In this document: piece by piece, positions 2,572-59,674 of the stretch
How positions within the stretch are numbered: the stretch's first letter is position 1
Layout: each line of letters begins with the position of its first letter
Sequence record: OK272484.1
Direction: 5' to 3' (one strand)
Source of the DNA: Escherichia phage JLBYU22
Length of the DNA stretch: 64,000 bases
Made by a program: the position numbers and the translations under genes
Notes under the pieces: model-generated
Databases searched by the model: none
What the model saw: only the letters and a program-made list of their open reading frames with translations
What the model was told of the DNA's origin: nothing

Positions 2572-3576
2572 TTAACTTACCAATTCAATCCAAGCCGGAC
2601 GAAGTACATCTTGTACCATTTTAACTAATTCCTTCTTAATCAAGGAAGGATTATCCGCTTGAGTTAAAGTAATACCTTCACGAGAAGTTTCTTCCAAAAT
2701 ATCTTGAACAGTTAGTCCCATCACCTTTCCAAAATCTTTTGGACCAATTTCGCCAATTTTAGAAATAACGTTATTTACCCGATTCAGTGTAACGTAGCAA
2801 GCTAAAATTCCCAGCAATTTGTTATCAGCTTCTGACAGTTCAACTTTAACTTTAATAGGCTTATCAGACTTTTTCTTTTCGCTAAATTTAGAGTTCTTGC
2901 ATTTGATAGCTACGCGATTACCATTAGGCATCCAAGAAGGATAACAAGGTTTCAATACATATCCTTCAGCAGTAAATACTTCGCCTTTTGCTTCAGCATT
3001 CCAAACGCATTTATTTGCATCAACTAATCCAGCGTGGTCTACCGTAAAATTATAATCCTGGACGACAGAATCTAAATCATTTGGCAATTTAATAAGTTCT
3101 TCAAATTTACCACGACCCAAAAGTGGAGCCATTTTAAATTTGAATGTATTACAGAATGATTCCATCATATAATCATCGACATAAGTCACATCACCACTTT
3201 CTGTAGTAACAATAATGTCAAATACATAAAAATCTTTATCACCATAATCGACATTCTTCTGAATGCCAGGTCCAGCGAATTCGCCGAAGACTTGATAAGA
3301 TACAACTGCCGAAGTTTCCATAATATCTTGTACTGCTTTAATGGAATCAGCGTAATTCTTTAGAATAATTTCATACCCAAAGAAATCTTCAGCAGGAAGA
3401 ATCGGTCCAGTACGTTTAGCACAAGTTGCTTTATCGCGTTCAATAATCAGTGAGAAATTTGTGCCATGAATCTTTTCACGAGCTACCCATTCGCCGCCAG
3501 TCAATCCTAAACTGTAAAGTTTTTCAATGAATTTAGAATTGTAATGATTTTCAAGACTGCTATACTTTTTAAACAT
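2572..3576 (-). CDS. rnlB: RNA ligase 2
   Basis: 334 aa; nucleotidyltransferase lysine motif KIHGTN near N-terminus; T4 position. Confidence 0.9.
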
Positions 3577-53868: not shown

Positions 53869-54654
53869 ATGGCAATTGTAGGTGTTCCTGGCTGGATTGG
53901 TGAATCTGCCGTGAATGAAACTGGACAGCGTTGGATGGATGCTGCGATGAGAGCAGTTCGTGTTTCAGTTCCTGGTTGGATGAGCTCAATGGCTGGGCAA
54001 TCTAAAGAAGTATATTATAGCATTGGTGCTAGCAATTCTTACAATAAAGACACACTAATAAATTGGATAAAAGCCCAAGGAAGCACTCCTGTTGTTATTA
54101 CTATTACAGGAAATATTGTTTCTCAATCTACTGGTGTTCCATGCTTAGATTTTCCTAGCTCATTAACTAATGCATACGTGACACTTAATATCAATTCAGG
54201 CGTGCATGTTTGGGGCCGTGGCGGGAATGGCGGAAATAACTCTGCTGGCGGAGCAGGAGGAACTGCAATAAATAACGGAATTGGAACTAGATTACGTATT
54301 AACAACAATGGTGTTATCGCAGGCGGCGGTGGCGGCGGTGGCGGCGGATACTACTCTCCTTTTTCACAAATGAAATTGACTTTTGGCGGAGGAGGCGGTC
54401 GTCCATTTGGTGCTGCCGGTGGGTCTGCTAATATGGAACAGGGTGCTACTGCTGGTACTATTTCTGCGCCAGGTAAAGGGTCTGTCAACGGTATCTATAA
54501 TGGCGGGAATGGTGGTGATGCCGGAGCCGCAGGAGGTAAATGTAATATTCGCGGTCAAGGATCAGAATATAACGGTGGTGCTGCGGGTAAAGCTGTTACT
54601 GGTAATGCTCCAACTTGGACTAAAGTTGGCACAATATATGGTTCAAGAGTATAA
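53869..54654 (+). CDS. 38: Tail fibre tip adhesin gp38 (T2-type, glycine-rich motifs flanking variable segments)
   Basis: 261 aa; poly-Gly runs such as GGGGGGGGGYY and GGGGG; N-terminus MAIVGVPGWIG; C-terminus GSRV. Confidence 0.88.
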   Translation: MAIVGVPGWIGESAVNETGQRWMDAAMRAVRVSVPGWMSSMAGQSKEVYYSIGASNSYNKDTLINWIKAQGSTPVVITITGNIVSQSTGVPCLDFPSSLTNAYVTLNINSGVHVWGRGGNGGNNSAGGAGGTAINNGIGTRLRINNNGVIAGGGGGGGGGYYSPFSQMKLTFGGGGGRPFGAAGGSANMEQGATAGTISAPGKGSVNGIYNGGNGGDAGAAGGKCNIRGQGSEYNGGAAGKAVTGNAPTWTKVGTIYGSRV

Positions 54655-54686: not shown

Positions 54687-55343
54687 ATGGCAGCACCTAG
54701 AATATCACTTTCGCCCTCTGATATTCTATTTGGTGTTCTAGATCGCTTGTTCAAAGATAACGCTACCGGGAAAGTTCTTGCTTCCCGGGTAGCTGTCGTA
54801 ATTCTTTTATTTATGATGGCGATTGTTTGGTATAGGGGAGATAGTTTCTTTGAGTACTATAAGCAATCAAAGTATGAAACATACAGTGAAATTATTGAAA
54901 AGGAAAGAAATGCACGCTTTGAATCTGTCGCCCTGGAACAACTCCAGATAGTTCATATATCATCTGAGGCAGACTTTAGTGCGGTGTATTCTTTCCGCCC
55001 TAAAAACTTAAACTATTTTGTTGATATTATAGCATACGAAGGAAGATTACCTTCGACAATAACAGAAAAATCACTTGGAGGATATCCTGTTGATAAAACT
55101 ATGGATGAATATACAGTTCATTTAAATGGACGTCATTATTATTCCGATTCAAAATTTGCTTTTTTACCAACTAAAAAGCCTACTCCCGAAATAAACTACA
55201 TGTACAGTTGTCCATATTTTAATTTGGATAATATCTATGCTGGAACGATAACCATGTACTGGTATAGAAATGATCATATAAGTAATGACCGCCTTGAATC
55301 AATATGTGCTCAGGCGGCCAGAATATTAGGAAGGGCTAAATAA
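54687..55343 (+). CDS. t: Holin T
   Basis: 218 aa, same as T4 holin; single N-proximal TM segment. Confidence 0.9.
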   Translation: MAAPRISLSPSDILFGVLDRLFKDNATGKVLASRVAVVILLFMMAIVWYRGDSFFEYYKQSKYETYSEIIEKERNARFESVALEQLQIVHISSEADFSAVYSFRPKNLNYFVDIIAYEGRLPSTITEKSLGGYPVDKTMDEYTVHLNGRHYYSDSKFAFLPTKKPTPEINYMYSCPYFNLDNIYAGTITMYWYRNDHISNDRLESICAQAARILGRAK

Positions 55344-55616
55344 TTATTTGTTCGTATACATCTCTAGATATCGATATACACCCTCAAAACCCTCGTTGAA
55401 TTCGTCGATGAGGGTTTTCTTATCTTCTTGAGTTAATTCAGAAACAATTTTACGGAATGAATTCTGATTTAATTTTCTACCTTCATGCGTTACTCCAATC
55501 TCATTCAGAAATGCAATAAAATTAGCACGATTCTCAACAATATCTTCTCTGGAAAATTTAATCAAAATAGACGCAACAGTAATAATTTCACGAACTGTAT
55601 CAATGTTTTTATTCAT
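55344..55616 (-). CDS. asiA: Anti-sigma70 factor AsiA
   Basis: 90 aa, sequence as recalled for T4 AsiA. Confidence 0.9.
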   Translation of the reverse strand: MNKNIDTVREIITVASILIKFSREDIVENRANFIAFLNEIGVTHEGRKLNQNSFRKIVSELTQEDKKTLIDEFNEGFEGVYRYLEMYTNK

Positions 55617-55628
55617 TAACTATACCAC

Positions 55629-55781
55629 TCAATTAGTTGACTTTGTTATAATATCATCAGACGCTTGATTTGTAAACTGGTCTGTGTTATTTTCTTCAAA
55701 AATTTTTTCTACGAATTCCTTGAACGACTTACGTTCCTGAGCTACATTATGCTCGATTACTTTTTCAAGATTATGACTCAT
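55629..55781 (-). CDS. Small hypothetical protein (50 aa) coupled to arn
   Basis: ATG overlaps arn stop (ATGA); not in ORF track. Confidence 0.35.
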   Translation of the reverse strand: MSHNLEKVIEHNVAQERKSFKEFVEKIFEENNTDQFTNQASDDIITKSTN

Positions 55782-56056
55782 TCGAAATAATCTTCAATTT
55801 CATAATCATGGACGTAAATCATTATAGTTTTTAATACATCATCAATACTTTTTCCTGGAGCTGGAATTACGTAGAAATATCCTGCTTTTGAGAGGTCTTT
55901 ATAAGTTCCAATCAAGAAATCATTATTCTCAAGATGTAGTTCTTCAACTAATTCATTAACAATTGAATGGTATAGGTTTGGTAGAAACTTATATAGCTTT
56001 TCTAGAATATCAATTTTGATTGTGTATTGAACCACGGATTGAGAATCAATAATCAT
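55778..56056 (-). CDS. arn: Arn, anti-restriction (McrBC inhibitor) DNA-mimic protein
   Basis: 92 aa acidic protein at the T4 arn position next to asiA. Confidence 0.7.
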   Translation of the reverse strand: MIIDSQSVVQYTIKIDILEKLYKFLPNLYHSIVNELVEELHLENNDFLIGTYKDLSKAGYFYVIPAPGKSIDDVLKTIMIYVHDYEIEDYFE

Positions 56057-56139
56057 AGACCTTCCCCTTATGTTTCTGTTTGCGATTAGATTCTTTAAAC
56101 GCTTTCTTCTTATCCATATGAACAGAAGCTTTATTAAAA

Positions 56140-56358
56140 TTATGTTTTGCGACTAAATTGTTCATAGTGCTGAATTACCTCTCTCAAACATTTGCATGTG
56201 AATGAAAACTTTTTAGCTACACCACATTCAAATATATGTTCTCTTAAATCGTGTGTATCCGTATATCCCATCTCAACAATAAAATGCCGTATTAGATTTT
56301 TATCTTTATCATTGAGAGAATTAAAATAATCAGATTTTGAATTAATTTCCCTGGCCAA
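56140..56358 (-). CDS. Hypothetical protein (arn-motA interval)
   Basis: 72-aa ORF. Confidence 0.5.
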   Translation of the reverse strand: MAREINSKSDYFNSLNDKDKNLIRHFIVEMGYTDTHDLREHIFECGVAKKFSFTCKCLREVIQHYEQFSRKT

Positions 56359-56638
56359 ATTGAATCACCTTCAGTTGACGTTTTAGCTCTTTTATCATCT
56401 CTTCGTTCATCGCAATATAAAGATCGCGTAAAGCAGGTTTTAGCATGTCATTTATTATAGAACTAAATGGACATACATAATCTTTTCCTACGAGCTTTTT
56501 GGTGAATTCCATATCACAGAACTTAAATCCCGGCTCATTGGTATAAATTCCCCAATTAGTTGACATCATTTTATTGGCATATTCTAGTGCCTGGATTTGA
56601 TTCATAATTCCATCAATTTGAAACTTTTTAATATTCAT
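56342..56638 (-). CDS. Hypothetical protein (arn-motA interval)
   Basis: 98-aa ORF. Confidence 0.5.
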   Translation of the reverse strand: MNIKKFQIDGIMNQIQALEYANKMMSTNWGIYTNEPGFKFCDMEFTKKLVGKDYVCPFSSIINDMLKPALRDLYIAMNEEMIKELKRQLKVIQFGQGN

Positions 56639-57099
56639 TAGTAAAGGTCCTCAGAGTAAAGTTCTTTTTCACTACCACCACGTTCAATACGTACTTGTCC
56701 AGCGTAAGTTGCAATAATCATTGCTTCTTCACGTGTCCAATAATTACTATATTGGTCAATAAACCCTTGGTCATCATCACAAACTTGTTGAGTAACTAAT
56801 TGAGGTTTAACTACATCTAAAACTTCTGCCATATCTTTAGAATAATGACGAGCACCTGGAATAATAAGAGTTCGTCCATCTTTTAATTTAAAACGGTTGG
56901 CTGCACAGACAATTCGTCGTTGATACTTTTGGTTTTCATCCCAATATGCAGTCTGCCAACAGATTTCAGGAACTTCATCTAAAACATTTTGTTCTGTATA
57001 TTCACCACCATAAGAAGCTAATTTAGCAGCCAGACTTTCCGGAGTCTCACGAGATAAAGCTTTATCTAACAGAGCTAAACGTTCTTTAAAAGTTTTCAT
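56638..57099 (-). CDS. Hypothetical protein (arn-motA interval)
   Basis: 153-aa ORF. Confidence 0.55.
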
Positions 57100-57425
57100 T
57101 TAAACCATCCTTTAATACGCTGCCACAAAGTTTTCTGTTGAGCTTTGTTAACACCAATTGAACGAATAACCGGTTGAGATTCCTGGAATTCTTTATAATC
57201 GGCAAGGTAAATTTCGTAAGCTGCATCTGTAAAGGAACTTATCGCTGCCATAAAATTATTGCGAATACCTACTGGAGCATCTTTACTTTCACGAATAATC
57301 ATGTATTTACCAGTCTTAATCTTTACAATAGTTCCAAGATAAGCTCCATGGTACCAAATATCCCAACCCTCTTGAGTAGGTTCTGCACAACGACGAAGTT
57401 CATTGACAATTTCTAACTTGTTCAT
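57096..57425 (-). CDS. Hypothetical protein (arn-motA interval)
   Basis: 109-aa ORF. Confidence 0.55.
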
Positions 57426-57435
57426 TATTTATTCC

Positions 57436-58071
57436 TCACAGTTCAGATGCTACAGTGATTACAGCTTCAATGTTTTCTGCCGAGCGTTTAATGTCAAGAT
57501 ACACATTACCGTTTTTAGCGATTTTACAAGACATTCCGATATCAGTAAATTTCTGAATATGATGTTCCATCATTTTGTATCCAAAAATTCGCATGTTTCC
57601 ATTGTTGTTAATTTCAAAATTGCGAATTCCGTGAGTGCGTTTTTCTAAAATAGCAAGATAATTACTACGATAAGTTTCAACCTTTTTAAGAACAAATCCA
57701 TTTTCATCTAAAAGTTTTAACATGAGATCTTTATCTTCTTCCATATCGGAAGTAATCTCGCGAGCTTTACGAGTAGCACGTTTTTTCAGAAGTTCTGGAG
57801 CATTTTCCTGCGCATATAAAGTTGCTGCGTTTGAAATAATATCTTGCGCTTCGCCTGTGATGATTAATCCATCACCTGATTTCTCTACCAGGCCTTTTTT
57901 AATCAATACCCCAATATTACTATTAACTACTGCGTTACCTAAATCTGGATGCACCTCACGAACTTCTGCAGCTGTAATGAAATCTTTCTTAGCAATGGTA
58001 ATTAAAATCGCAGCAGTTTTTTCATTCAGAACATCGTTAGAAGCTTTGATGATGTAAGTTACTTTAGACAT
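57436..58071 (-). CDS. motA: Middle transcription activator MotA
   Basis: 211 aa, same as T4 MotA. Confidence 0.92.
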   Translation of the reverse strand: MSKVTYIIKASNDVLNEKTAAILITIAKKDFITAAEVREVHPDLGNAVVNSNIGVLIKKGLVEKSGDGLIITGEAQDIISNAATLYAQENAPELLKKRATRKAREITSDMEEDKDLMLKLLDENGFVLKKVETYRSNYLAILEKRTHGIRNFEINNNGNMRIFGYKMMEHHIQKFTDIGMSCKIAKNGNVYLDIKRSAENIEAVITVASEL

Positions 58072-58104
58072 TTTCTAATCTCCGTAATTCTGTATCAGTA
58101 GTTG

Positions 58105-58170
58105 ATAGTTGTATAGTACCACAGTATGCTTTGGTTGTAAACCGTTTTGTGAAAAAAATTTTTGAAATAA
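58105..58170 (-). promoter_or_regulatory. Early promoter cassette (family 2) for motA with UP element
   Basis: Minus strand ttttttatttcaaaaatttttttcacaaaacgGTTTACA, 17-nt spacer, TACTATacaactatcaactactg. Confidence 0.55.
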
Positions 58171-58174
58171 AAAA

Positions 58175-58194
58175 GGGAGAGCCTCGGCTCTCCC
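58175..58194 (-). terminator. Rho-independent terminator immediately upstream of the motA promoter
   Basis: GGGAGAGCC-TC-GGCTCTCCC hairpin followed by T-tract on minus strand. Confidence 0.7.
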
Positions 58195-58199
58195 TAAAA

Positions 58200-58349
58200 T
58201 TACTGCATGACTGTGATAACTGTCATGATAACACGTTGAATTCCGAACGCAAGAAGACCTCCTGCTACGGCTGGAACAACACCTAAACCCGCCAGTAAAA
58301 TGCTACCGGATACTAATGCAGCGCTTGTAATACCTATAAATGGACTCAT
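58200..58349 (-). CDS. Small hydrophobic membrane peptide (49 aa), coupled to gene 52
   Basis: MSPFIGITSAALVSGSILLAGLGVVPAVAGGLLAFGIQ...; ATG overlaps gene 52 stop; not in ORF track. Confidence 0.5.
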   Translation of the reverse strand: MSPFIGITSAALVSGSILLAGLGVVPAVAGGLLAFGIQRVIMTVITVMQ

Positions 58350-59674
58350 TTGATTTCCTCTAAATCTTTAGTGTATTCGGTAACTACATCAGTAGTTTTC
58401 CAATATTCGTTTTCTTCTTTCTTAGCTTTAGCTTCTTCAGCAAGTTTCTTTGCTTCGTCGGAAGTCATATGAAAAATATTCATACCAACTAGTTTATCAA
58501 CATAAGAAGAATACATATCAATTTTAGAAAGTTCTTCTGTCAGTTCTTTACGAGTTTTACCTTGTACAACAATTTCACCTGAAATTACTTTCTTAATGAA
58601 ATGTGCCTTGGCAAAGGCTAAACGAAATGCTGATTCAGTTTCTTTGATTTTGTTATCAATTCGTTTCTGGACATAAGTTTTACGAACTTCAACGAAGTCT
58701 TTGATTAAATCAACTACGTTATCGTAAACTTGCAGCTTTCCTTTCTCATTAATAACGGTAATATTCTGGGAACGACGCTCAATCAACCCGAAGTCTTTCA
58801 TAATTTTCGCGTGACGTTCTTCTTCGTTATCGCTCAAAGAATATTCTTTACGGAATTTAACTTTGAAGCCAAAACCATGCTCACCGCAAGCATCATCCCA
58901 CGTAATGAATCCTTTATCTTCAAGCGGGTCTAAGATTTTACTCACATAAGTTTCACGATCATACTTATACGGAATCTCAGTGATATTCATTTGAGTTCGT
59001 GAAGTAAACTTGTACGTTCCACGAATTTCATATTGACCGTCAATTTCAACGACTTCACCGCGAAATTCTGGGAATTCTACCTTAGGTTTAGTTACTTTCT
59101 TTCCTTGAAGAGCTTGCAGTACAGCTTTCTTGACAGAAGAAACGCTATGAGGAAGAATGTAAGTTGCATAACCAGTTGCAATACCGGAAACACCATTAAG
59201 AAGAACAGTAGGAATAATAGGCAAATAGAAAGCAGGCGGAATGTGTTCTTTATCTTGATGTACCGGAGCATATTCAGTATCTTTATATACGTTATAGAAA
59301 TTTTTACTTACACGAGCAAAAATATAACGACTTGCCGCTGCTTTTTGGACAGTACGAGAACCAAAGTTTCCTTGACCATCTAACAAAGGAAAGTTATTAT
59401 TCCAAGTGTTAGCCATCAAAGCACCTGCGTCTTGTGCAGAGTTTTCACCATGATGATATCCAAGGTCTGCTACACCACCTGCAATAGAAGCGAGTTTGTG
59501 AAACTTATCTTTATTTCCTCGTGCCAAATCAAGAGCTCGAGCAATAACAAATCGTTGAACTGGCTTAAATCCATCAATCATATTTGGAATGGCACGATTT
59601 TCAACCGTGTACATAGCATAAGCCAATGCTTCATTATCAATGATACTTTTTAAATCGCGATTATTCAGTTGCAT
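58346..59674 (-). CDS. 52: DNA topoisomerase II medium subunit gp52
   Basis: 442 aa, same as T4 gp52. Confidence 0.93.
   Translation of the reverse strand: MQLNNRDLKSIIDNEALAYAMYTVENRAIPNMIDGFKPVQRFVIARALDLARGNKDKFHKLASIAGGVADLGYHHGENSAQDAGALMANTWNNNFPLLDGQGNFGSRTVQKAAASRYIFARVSKNFYNVYKDTEYAPVHQDKEHIPPAFYLPIIPTVLLNGVSGIATGYATYILPHSVSSVKKAVLQALQGKKVTKPKVEFPEFRGEVVEIDGQYEIRGTYKFTSRTQMNITEIPYKYDRETYVSKILDPLEDKGFITWDDACGEHGFGFKVKFRKEYSLSDNEEERHAKIMKDFGLIERRSQNITVINEKGKLQVYDNVVDLIKDFVEVRKTYVQKRIDNKIKETESAFRLAFAKAHFIKKVISGEIVVQGKTRKELTEELSKIDMYSSYVDKLVGMNIFHMTSDEAKKLAEEAKAKKEENEYWKTTDVVTEYTKDLEEIK

Follow-up and report, generated by a model that had tools for sequence, protein, structure and literature searches.

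The minus-strand block at positions 55629-57425 of Escherichia phage JLBYU22 (sequence record OK272484.1) was analysed; the window denotes the whole stretch of 64,000 nucleotides (nt) in which the block lies. With a probability of about 0.9, we read this block as the arn cluster of T-even phages, composed of seven small, overlapping and coupled genes in the order arn.4, arn.3, arn.2, arn.1, a 39-amino acid DUF7230 gene, arn and asiA.1. The six neighbours of Arn would be accessory host-takeover or counter-defence factors under purifying selection. The locus itself was already known, as was Arn, whose structure has been solved. The present analysis leaves the knowledge of Arn unchanged and adds corrected gene models, a prediction from the Arn allele and a homology between Arn.3 and the antitoxin CmdA. 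The genes of the block and the two genes that border it are as follows.

57436-58071, minus strand: motA; Pfam MotA_activ and MotCF; 207 of 211 residues identical to T4 MotA.
57096-57425, minus strand: arn.4, 109 amino acids; phrog_1594 (E 2.5e-54); Shine-Dalgarno (SD) sequence gaggaa; start 10 nt past the motA stop.
56638-57099, minus strand: arn.3, 153 amino acids; phrog_839 (E 2.1e-73); 129 of 153 residues identical to T4 Arn.3.
56342-56638, minus strand: arn.2, 98 amino acids; phrog_1844 (E 1.3e-50); 94 of 98 residues identical to T4 Arn.2.
56140-56358, minus strand: arn.1, 72 amino acids, TTG start at 56358; phrog_4452 (E 9.7e-39 over residues 1-72).
56046-56165, minus strand: DUF7230 gene, 39 amino acids, basic (isoelectric point (pI) 10.1; MNNLVAKHNFNKASVHMDKKKAFKESNRKQKHKGKVYDY); Pfam PF23876 and phrog_1359.
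55778-56056, minus strand: arn, 92 amino acids, DNA-mimic McrBC inhibitor; Pfam PF22134 DM_Arn, PDB 3wx4 and identity to T4 Arn.
55629-55781, minus strand: asiA.1, 50 amino acids, acidic (pI 4.9); phrog_3762 (E 9.6e-38); 48 of 50 residues identical to T4 AsiA.1.
55344-55616, minus strand: asiA; Pfam AsiA (E 1e-42); 90 of 90 residues identical to T4 AsiA.

The block was compared with the annotated T4 reference NC_000866 by pairwise alignment, and the gene models were compared across 27 related IMG/VR loci by tblastn, start-codon inspection and Nei-Gojobori counts. The genome is that of a Tequatrovirus (T4-like phage). In a megablast search with positions 55300-57700 (2.4 kb), 649 phage records were matched at identities of at most 98.3%; in 483 of them the match spanned 80% or more of the query. 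Nearly all of these records belong to Tequatrovirus or to related T-even phages infecting Escherichia, Shigella and Yersinia. The order motA, arn.4, arn.3, arn.2, arn.1, arn, asiA.1 and asiA on one strand is that of T4, and the encoded proteins are 84-100% identical to their T4 counterparts. Synteny, protein identity and the number of matching phage records together identify the block as a T4-type arn cluster. Its seven open reading frames (ORFs) are tightly packed, with successive overlaps of 4, 1, 17, 26, 11 and 4 nt and no intergenic base between 57425 and 55629, and an SD-like sequence precedes each of the seven start codons. Every ORF matched a PHROG family at E<=1e-22; apart from the family of Arn, all but one of these families are of unknown function.

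An earlier note on this DNA, prepared from the letters alone, had listed six minus-strand ORFs of 50, 92, 72, 98, 153 and 109 amino acids, placed between asiA and motA, and had proposed the 92-residue protein as an Arn candidate flanked by five uncharacterised ORFs. All six ORFs are present where the note had placed them, and the Pfam matches of AsiA on one side and MotA on the other bear out the position. The ATGA overlap that it described between the 92- and 50-residue ORFs is found in the sequence. The five neighbours all exist and correspond to T4 asiA.1 and arn.1-arn.4 in T4 order, as the alignment proposed in the note showed; the count of neighbours is six, since the 39-residue DUF7230 ORF had been overlooked.

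The identity of Arn was established by alignment. The protein matched PF22134 DM_Arn with 181.2 bits (cutoff 26; E 4.4e-54) over model positions 1-79 of 79, and 3wx4_A with an E value of 1.1e-55 over residues 1-92. It is identical to T4 Arn at 90 of 92 residues (98%), where a lack of similarity would have spoken against the assignment. The earlier note was thus right about the protein, and in view of the Pfam and PDB 3WX4 scores the word candidate was over-cautious. Its description of the protein as acidic also holds, as there are 16 D+E and 7 K+R residues, giving a net negative charge and a pI of 4.55. Length, the slot between asiA.1 and arn.1, the ATGA coupling to asiA.1 and acidity are all as in T4 Arn. 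From the 98% identity to 3WX4, the DNA-mimic pattern of surface charge is expected to be present as well. Arn of T4 and T2 is described as an acidic, dimeric mimic of DNA that binds H-NS and both binds and inhibits McrBC, a type IV restriction enzyme that would otherwise cut hydroxymethylcytosine DNA lacking glucosylation (Ho et al. 2014 JBC, as cited in PMC12871103; 10.64898/2026.06.19.733364).

The window allele of Arn carries I13, S70 and I80, with codon 70 at 55847-55849 on the minus strand. It differs from T4 Arn by F13I and N70S, and S70 is the residue of the T2 type. The exchange N70S abolished inhibition of PUA-Cal-HAD by T4 Arn (PMC12871103). Since the window protein carries S70, it is predicted to leave PUA-Cal-HAD uninhibited, and a narrower, T2-like target range would be expected. 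Inhibition of McrBC is probably retained.

The second subject of the analysis was Arn.3, in which two parts were distinguished.

57010-57099, minus strand: Arn.3 N-terminal module, residues 1-30; PADLOC PD-T4-9_B; predicted to form two short helices.
56641-56928, minus strand: Arn.3 core domain, residues ~58-153; PHROG 839 (homologues labelled Pfam PF26092); invariant C-terminus ..ELYSEDLY.

Residues 1-30 matched the PADLOC model PD-T4-9_B, which describes the CmdA antitoxin, with an E value of 1.2e-8 over model positions 1-30 of 77. The statement in the earlier note that the ORFs around arn have no recognisable motifs therefore fails for this 153-residue protein. The same model was matched by 10 of 40 members of the Arn.3 family. 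In the AlphaFold2 (AF2) model of Arn.3, the helices of the module are predicted at residues 4-8 and 20-29. PD-T4-9 is the CmdTAC system, which consists of the mRNA ADP-ribosyltransferase toxin CmdT, the antitoxin CmdA and the SecB-like chaperone CmdC (PMC11618068). CmdA comprises two N-terminal helices and a disordered tail that ends in a ClpXP degron, and its sequences were noted to be highly variable. The system protects E. coli specifically against T-even phages and is triggered by the major capsid protein, which displaces CmdA from CmdC (PMC11618068).

Several searches for CmdA sequences were without success: a word-indexed protein search (45 amino acids), tblastn against plasmids, blastn against E. 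coli genomes and a scan of GTDB genomes. A SecB-based search of phage records for a CmdA locus yielded a single candidate, which was discarded as a housekeeping secB gene on a high-GC contig. A scan of IMG/VR with the phage module recovered three loci, L042, L043 and L044. L042 (1413-2638) and L043 (1416-2626) each hold a three-gene operon encoding proteins of 189-190, 77-81 and 129-130 amino acids, which match PD-T4-9_A, PD-T4-9_B and PD-T4-9_C at about 1e-90, 1e-33 and 1e-57, respectively. By these matches both loci are genuine cmdT-cmdA-cmdC operons. As read from the ORF translations, L043 adjoins what we take to be a P2-like portal gene, and L042 presumably a P2 gpA-like replication gene. 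In the CmdA proteins of L042 and L043, the N-terminal 30 residues are conserved and the tails are divergent, ending in ..QAA and ..EAA.

The Arn.3 module is identical to L042 CmdA at 21 of 30 positions, and the maximum in 100,000 shuffles was 12. A hidden Markov model (HMM) built from phage modules only matched the three CmdA proteins with E values from 7.5e-15 to 5.6e-12, and the next, unrelated ORF followed at E 1.8. Given the reciprocal HMM matches and an identity far above the shuffle maximum, the homology between the module and the N-terminus of CmdA is judged solid at the sequence level. An extension of the similarity to the 'PEICWQ' strand of Arn.3 (27 of 73 positions identical, with gaps) was too weak to be used. 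The CmdTAC paper does not mention the relationship (0 occurrences of "arn" in PMC11618068), and a targeted literature search found no report of it.

The first 30 residues of Arn.3 and CmdA are thus homologous (57-70% identical) and predicted to be helical in both proteins, but the remainder differs. Instead of a chaperone-addiction tail with an Ala-Ala degron for ClpXP, Arn.3 runs into a folded phage domain of 95 residues with a predicted local distance difference test score (pLDDT) of 85-97 and ends in ..SEDLY. Its neighbours are arn.4 and arn.2 rather than cmdT and cmdC, and no protein of the block matched PD-T4-9_A or PD-T4-9_C. Judged by these features, Arn.3 shares the module and is not itself a CmdA. 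It would be a fusion of a CmdA-antitoxin-like two-helix module with a small, widespread phage domain (PHROG 839).

The core domain was characterised separately. In an alignment of 40 sequences, R61, A66, A67, R84, H85, Q111, G112, F113, D115, R123, Q135, S149, E150 and Y153 were invariant, as were the family motifs, including the C-terminal SE.LY. The invariant polar residues suggest a ligand-binding or catalytic domain. A search of 1.84 billion representative proteins with the core profile gave 3621 clusters at E<=1e-3; the members are mostly stand-alone proteins of 90-130 amino acids, and the match runs nearly always to the last residue. Of 120 homologues listed, 118 had PF26092 as their precomputed label. 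For ten longer proteins with the core at their C-terminus, Pfam gave no partner domain, and PHROGs gave phrog_839 alone, apart from two weak matches to families of unknown function. The AF2 model of Arn.3 was of good quality (pLDDT 88, predicted template modelling (TM) score 0.82). No fold in the PDB matched it at E<=0.001 (best E 0.19, TM 0.3), and the PDB sequence search with Arn.3 returned nothing meaningful. In BFVD, the model matched mostly uncharacterised phage proteins and, weakly, three proteins described as 'large polyvalent protein associated domain-containing'. Matches of the Arn.3 and Arn.4 models to Fur/ArgR, cytidine-deaminase and FERM folds were dismissed, with TM scores of about 0.2-0.3.

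Module and core also differ in their history. Compared with T4 (window 56970-57099 against 3002-3131 of the T4 locus L001), residues 1-43 of Arn.3 are ~50% identical and residues 44-153 nearly identical; this sharp change at residues 43/44 implies a recombination boundary at the junction of module and core. Of the 815 phage records in which the module was found, 141 have the window type at an identity of at least 90%, and 369 a version less than 60% identical to it, the band that includes T4, T2 and T6. The module was also encountered in other settings. Vibrio phage D484 (253 kb; L031, 601-750) encodes it alone as a 49-residue protein (PD-T4-9_B, 8.4e-13, positions 1-42), and in Vibrio phage 495E54-1 (L030, 2501-2929) it is fused to a Cys-rich C-terminal domain. 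P0007, an Arn.3 homologue of 203 amino acids on a 170.6-kb contig, has tandem modules, one of the window type and one of the T4 type, followed by a single core.

A correlation of module type with CmdTAC sensitivity was sought by comparing the Arn.3 N-terminus of four BASEL phages with published plating data. Among the BASEL Tevenvirinae, only Bas35 and Bas38 escape restriction by CmdTAC-ECOR22 (Vassallo et al., PMC11618068). Identities refer to residues 1-30 of L042 CmdA.

Bas36 Paracelsus: restricted; 20/30 identical to L042 CmdA and 29/30 to the window module.
Bas35 WilhelmHis: escapes; 17/30 identical to L042 CmdA.
Bas38 AugustSocin: escapes; 17/30 identical to L042 CmdA.
T4: restricted; 13/30 identical to L042 CmdA.
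Bas42 AndreasVesalius: restricted; 13/30 identical to L042 CmdA.

As a predictor of escape from CmdTAC-ECOR22, the window-type module was rejected, because Bas36 carries it and is restricted.

Two explanations of the shared module were weighed. The more conservative one, to which we give slightly less than even odds, is that the module is a portable helical adaptor, for example for oligomerisation or partner docking, which CmdA and Arn.3 would have acquired independently, and that the core acts on a target unrelated to CmdTAC. The module occurs in at least four C-terminal contexts, namely with the PHROG-839 core, with the Cys-rich domain, with nothing and with the CmdA tail. It is duplicated in tandem in one homologue (P0007), is missing from most members of the core-domain family, and its type is unrelated to sensitivity to CmdTAC. 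However, an adaptor leaves unexplained why, among cellular genes, the module has so far been met only in the antitoxin of a system directed specifically at T-even phages, and why the identity should reach as much as 70% between a lytic phage of the T-even group and a defence gene borne by a prophage.

The other explanation, which we regard as rather unlikely, is that Arn.3 acts as an orphan-antitoxin decoy, whose CmdA-like helices would bind CmdT-type toxins, or the CmdC chaperone, and neutralise abortive infection of the CmdTAC type. Lacking tail and degron, Arn.3 would stay stable after the capsid-triggered degradation of CmdA, and the window-, T4-, Bas35- and Bas38-type variants of the module would reflect matching to different CmdT variants. 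The reciprocal homology (PADLOC CmdA model 1.2e-8, phage-only HMM 7.5e-15, identity 21/30) is in line with such a role, as is the origin of the compared CmdA proteins from bona fide cmdT-cmdA-cmdC operons. The specificity of CmdTAC for T-even phages fits as well (PMC11618068). So do the stand-alone 49-residue module in a Vibrio phage, which has neither tail nor degron, and the mosaic, fast-changing character of the module within Arn.3, as would be expected at an arms-race interface.

The restriction data point in the other direction. T4, T2 and T6 have a divergent module (T4, 13/30 identical to L042 CmdA; the match to the window module is exactly as weak for T2 and T6 as for T4), yet all three are strongly restricted by the CmdTAC of ECOR22. 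Bas36, with a module identical to that of the window at 29 of 30 positions, is restricted nonetheless, whereas the escapers Bas35 and Bas38 carry other variants. A decoy role would therefore survive only if the variants match other CmdT variants. The assignment of toxin binding to the N-terminal helices of CmdA is itself an AlphaFold-based statement (PMC11618068), and the joining of the 30-residue module to an unrelated Cys-rich domain is equally consistent with a generic adaptor.

T-even phages carry comparable genes in their early accessory regions. T4 Dmd counters the RnlA/LsoA toxin-antitoxin defences. AdfN (gp30.3) acts against DarTG1 and provides a precedent for an orphan antitoxin in T-even phages (PMC11825919). 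Like these two, Arn.3 is encoded in an early accessory region and resembles the antitoxin half of a defence system. Dmd and AdfN were proven experimentally, whereas for Arn.3 no correlation with the CmdTAC sensitivity of BASEL phages was found.

The gene models of the block were examined next to those of T4. In arn.1, an SD sequence (aaggtga) lies 5 nt upstream of the TTG start codon, which is also present in T4, and the gene overlaps the 3' end of arn.2 by 17 nt. The Arn.1 annotated in T4 has 43 residues and begins at the internal ATG (56271); the window protein is identical to it at 41 of 42 positions over the annotated T4 part. The full-length form of 72 residues is kept in divergent loci at 54-71% identity, where it starts with ATG behind an SD sequence. 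Its N-terminal 29 codons, intergenic in the T4 annotation, show 44-74% identity in divergent phages, and the ratio of nonsynonymous to synonymous proportions of differences (pN/pS) is 0.44 over the extension (codons 3-29), where synonymous sites are close to saturated. Given this conservation with ATG and SD sequence, the 72-residue Arn.1 appears to be a real gene and the "intergenic region" of T4 and T2 to be coding. The 72-residue form is already annotated in phage NR1.

For Arn.4, residues 42-109 are identical at all 68 positions to the annotated T4 protein of 68 amino acids. Codon 1 of the longer form is ATG in the window and in the 27 related loci and ATA in T4 NC_000866 (L001 3455-3457, corresponding to window 57423-57425), which accounts for the annotation of only 68 residues in T4. 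The form of 109 residues was found in 55 homologues. Residues 1-41 are the most conserved part of the protein and account for the majority of its invariant positions, with a pN/pS of 0.14 compared with 0.30 in the C-terminal part. From this pattern the 109-residue protein is taken to be the ancestral form, and T4 would either initiate at ATA or make just the C-terminal 68 residues, which lack the most conserved ones. The AF2 model of Arn.4 (pLDDT 82) consists of a helix, a five-strand sheet and further helices; no PDB fold matched it at E<=0.001, and the PDB sequence search gave nothing meaningful. PADLOC also paired Arn.4 with REase_II (E 0.0033, 15 bits), a match attributed to chance. The stop codon of arn.4 overlaps the start of arn.3 by 4 nt (ATGA). 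This junction is a hot spot for insertions, with an extra ORF of 51 amino acids in Bas35 WilhelmHis (L047 6841-6996) and 150-360 nt inserted in several IMG/VR relatives (L010-L012, L016, L020 and L021).

The 39-residue ORF overlaps the end of arn.1 by 26 nt and the start of arn by 11 nt. It matched PF23876 DUF7230 with an E value of 3.9e-11 and 43.3 bits, above the gathering cutoff of 27, and phrog_1359 with 1.6e-22. It is unannotated in the T4 reference, yet intact in T4, and it was found in 27 of 27 IMG/VR loci, including loci without arn, asiA.1 or arn.1. With a pN/pS of 0.18, it has the characteristics of a conserved gene under purifying selection. The acidic asiA.1, coupled to arn through ATGA, was found solely in those of the 27 loci that also carry arn, and the start of arn.2 overlaps the stop of arn.3 by 1 nt (TAATG). 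No match was obtained for Arn.2 in Pfam, NCBIfam, PADLOC or PDB, and the PDB sequence searches with Arn.1, Arn.2, AsiA.1 and the 39-residue protein gave nothing meaningful. A search of NCBIfam with the proteins of the block returned only sub-threshold noise.

That the flanking small ORFs are annotation noise or decaying remnants around arn as the sole functional gene, especially the 72-residue extension, the 39-residue ORF and the N-terminal part of Arn.4, is highly improbable: the shorter arn.1 and arn.4 and the unannotated 39-residue ORF of the T4 reference, the ATA at the T4 arn.4 start and the TTG start of arn.1 in the window would fit, but the disputed segments show 45-90% protein identity at a pS of 0.5-0.7 and a pN/pS of 0.14-0.44, the long Arn.1 has ATG and an SD sequence in divergent phages, the 39-residue ORF exceeds the Pfam gathering score and the Arn.4 N-terminus has the majority of the invariant residues; the conservation data already contradict this view.

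The homologues of arn.1-arn.4 bear the label "anti-restriction nuclease" in PHROG and GenBank. This label appears to have been propagated from the gene names; functional evidence for it was not found. A preprint of June 2026 on the arn operon of T2 still states that the arn.1-arn.4 neighbours are of unknown function (10.64898/2026.06.19.733364).

The corrected models bear on the expression of the cluster, for which the following sites were located.

56345-56354, minus strand: pairing site CCAGGGAAAU for the small RNA (sRNA) ArcZ; arn.2 +285 to +294, which are codons 2-5 of the 72-residue arn.1.
56283-56287, minus strand: GCAUU motif, putative RNase E site; 11 nt upstream of the internal ATG at 56271, inside the 72-residue arn.1 frame.
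58113-58141, minus strand: sigma-70-type promoter-like site upstream of motA (TTTACA, 17 nt, TACTAT, extended -10 TG); consensus match.
58174-58195, minus strand: terminator-like hairpin just upstream of the motA promoter-like site (9-bp stem, 6 GC pairs, T-run).
55648-55676, minus strand: sigma-70-type promoter-like site inside the 3' end of asiA.1 (TTTACA, 17 nt, TATTAT, with TG); best of the scan, 10 of 12 matches.

As described in the preprint, the T2 genes from arn.4 to arn form one abundant transcript, and the host sRNA ArcZ pairs with arn.2 at +285 to +294 and shields the RNA from RNase E (10.64898/2026.06.19.733364). The preprint places a putative RNase E site at a GcAUU motif that precedes the annotated ATG of arn.1 by 11 nt, and reports that loss of ArcZ lowers the T2 yield in an McrBC-dependent manner (10.64898/2026.06.19.733364). 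In the window, CCAGGGAAAT at 56354-56345 is the exact reverse complement of nt 65-74 of E. coli K-12 ArcZ, ATTTCCCTGG. Genes and gene order, the ArcZ site at the same arn.2 position and the 11-nt distance from the GCAUU motif to the internal arn.1 ATG are as in the T2/T4 operon. With both the 10-nt site and the GCAUU motif preserved, ArcZ regulation very probably applies in this phage as well. The 10-nt site was present only in T4, Bas35, Bas36, Bas38 and the loci closest to T4.

The operon model differs from the window in two respects. Its 70-nt "intergenic region" is here, by the comparative data, the coding 5' part of the 72-residue Arn.1, and an additional gene of 39 amino acids lies between arn.1 and arn; neither the coding 5' part nor the additional gene appears in the available part of the preprint (10.64898/2026.06.19.733364). 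The TTG from which Arn.1 would start precedes the ArcZ site by 1 nt, and the RNase E motif falls within the Arn.1 reading frame. With the ArcZ site on codons 2-5 and the motif in frame, ArcZ pairing and Arn.1 initiation may interfere with each other. By its consensus match, the site at 58113-58141 is likely to be the early promoter from which motA and the arn genes are transcribed, and that at 55648-55676 is a candidate for a separate promoter of asiA. A search of Rfam with positions 55000-58500 found no RNA families, and no convincing late promoter was found adjoining arn.4.

Several observations weigh against the reading of the block as one functional arn cluster. No informative relative in Pfam, NCBIfam or PDB was obtained for asiA.1, arn.1, arn.2, arn.3, arn.4 or the 39-residue ORF. 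Most of the more distant relatives among the 27 IMG/VR loci lack arn and asiA.1, which argues against a fixed functional unit. For Arn.1, initiation at TTG is deduced from conservation. Promoter-like sites were not enriched over shuffles, with 11 found compared with 14.2 expected. Finally, no convincing MotA box was found directly upstream of arn.4, so that the transcript structure is borrowed from T2.

Beyond the block, the minus strand continues from asiA, the arn genes and motA to gene 52. A hydrophobic ORF of 49 amino acids (58200-58349, minus strand), the equivalent of T4 motA.1, is coupled to gene 52 and overlaps the strong terminator-like hairpin listed above. Upstream of the block, the plus strand carries gp37 (1253 amino acids), gp38 (261 amino acids) and the holin t (218 amino acids). 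The gp38 gene (53869-54654, plus strand) encodes a glycine-rich adhesin of the T2/T6 type, not the T4-type tail-fibre chaperone of 183 amino acids; GC content peaks locally at this gene (0.52, compared with ~0.35 in the genome). The phage thus appears to be T4-like in the arn region and T2/T6-like in receptor recognition.

For T-even phages, these results mean that the T4 reference models are too short for arn.1 and arn.4 and leave out a conserved gene of 39 amino acids. The corrected models would alter the reading of ArcZ and RNase E control, as the sRNA would pair where Arn.1 translation begins and the RNase E site regarded as "intergenic" becomes coding. S70 in Arn offers a sequence-based prediction of sensitivity to PUA-Cal-HAD. 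The homology of Arn.3 with CmdA provides a testable lead for one of the many phage genes without a function. If Arn.3 does act against CmdTAC, it would represent the first case of natural counter-defence to a toxin-antitoxin-chaperone system, and an arn.N gene would have a function for the first time.

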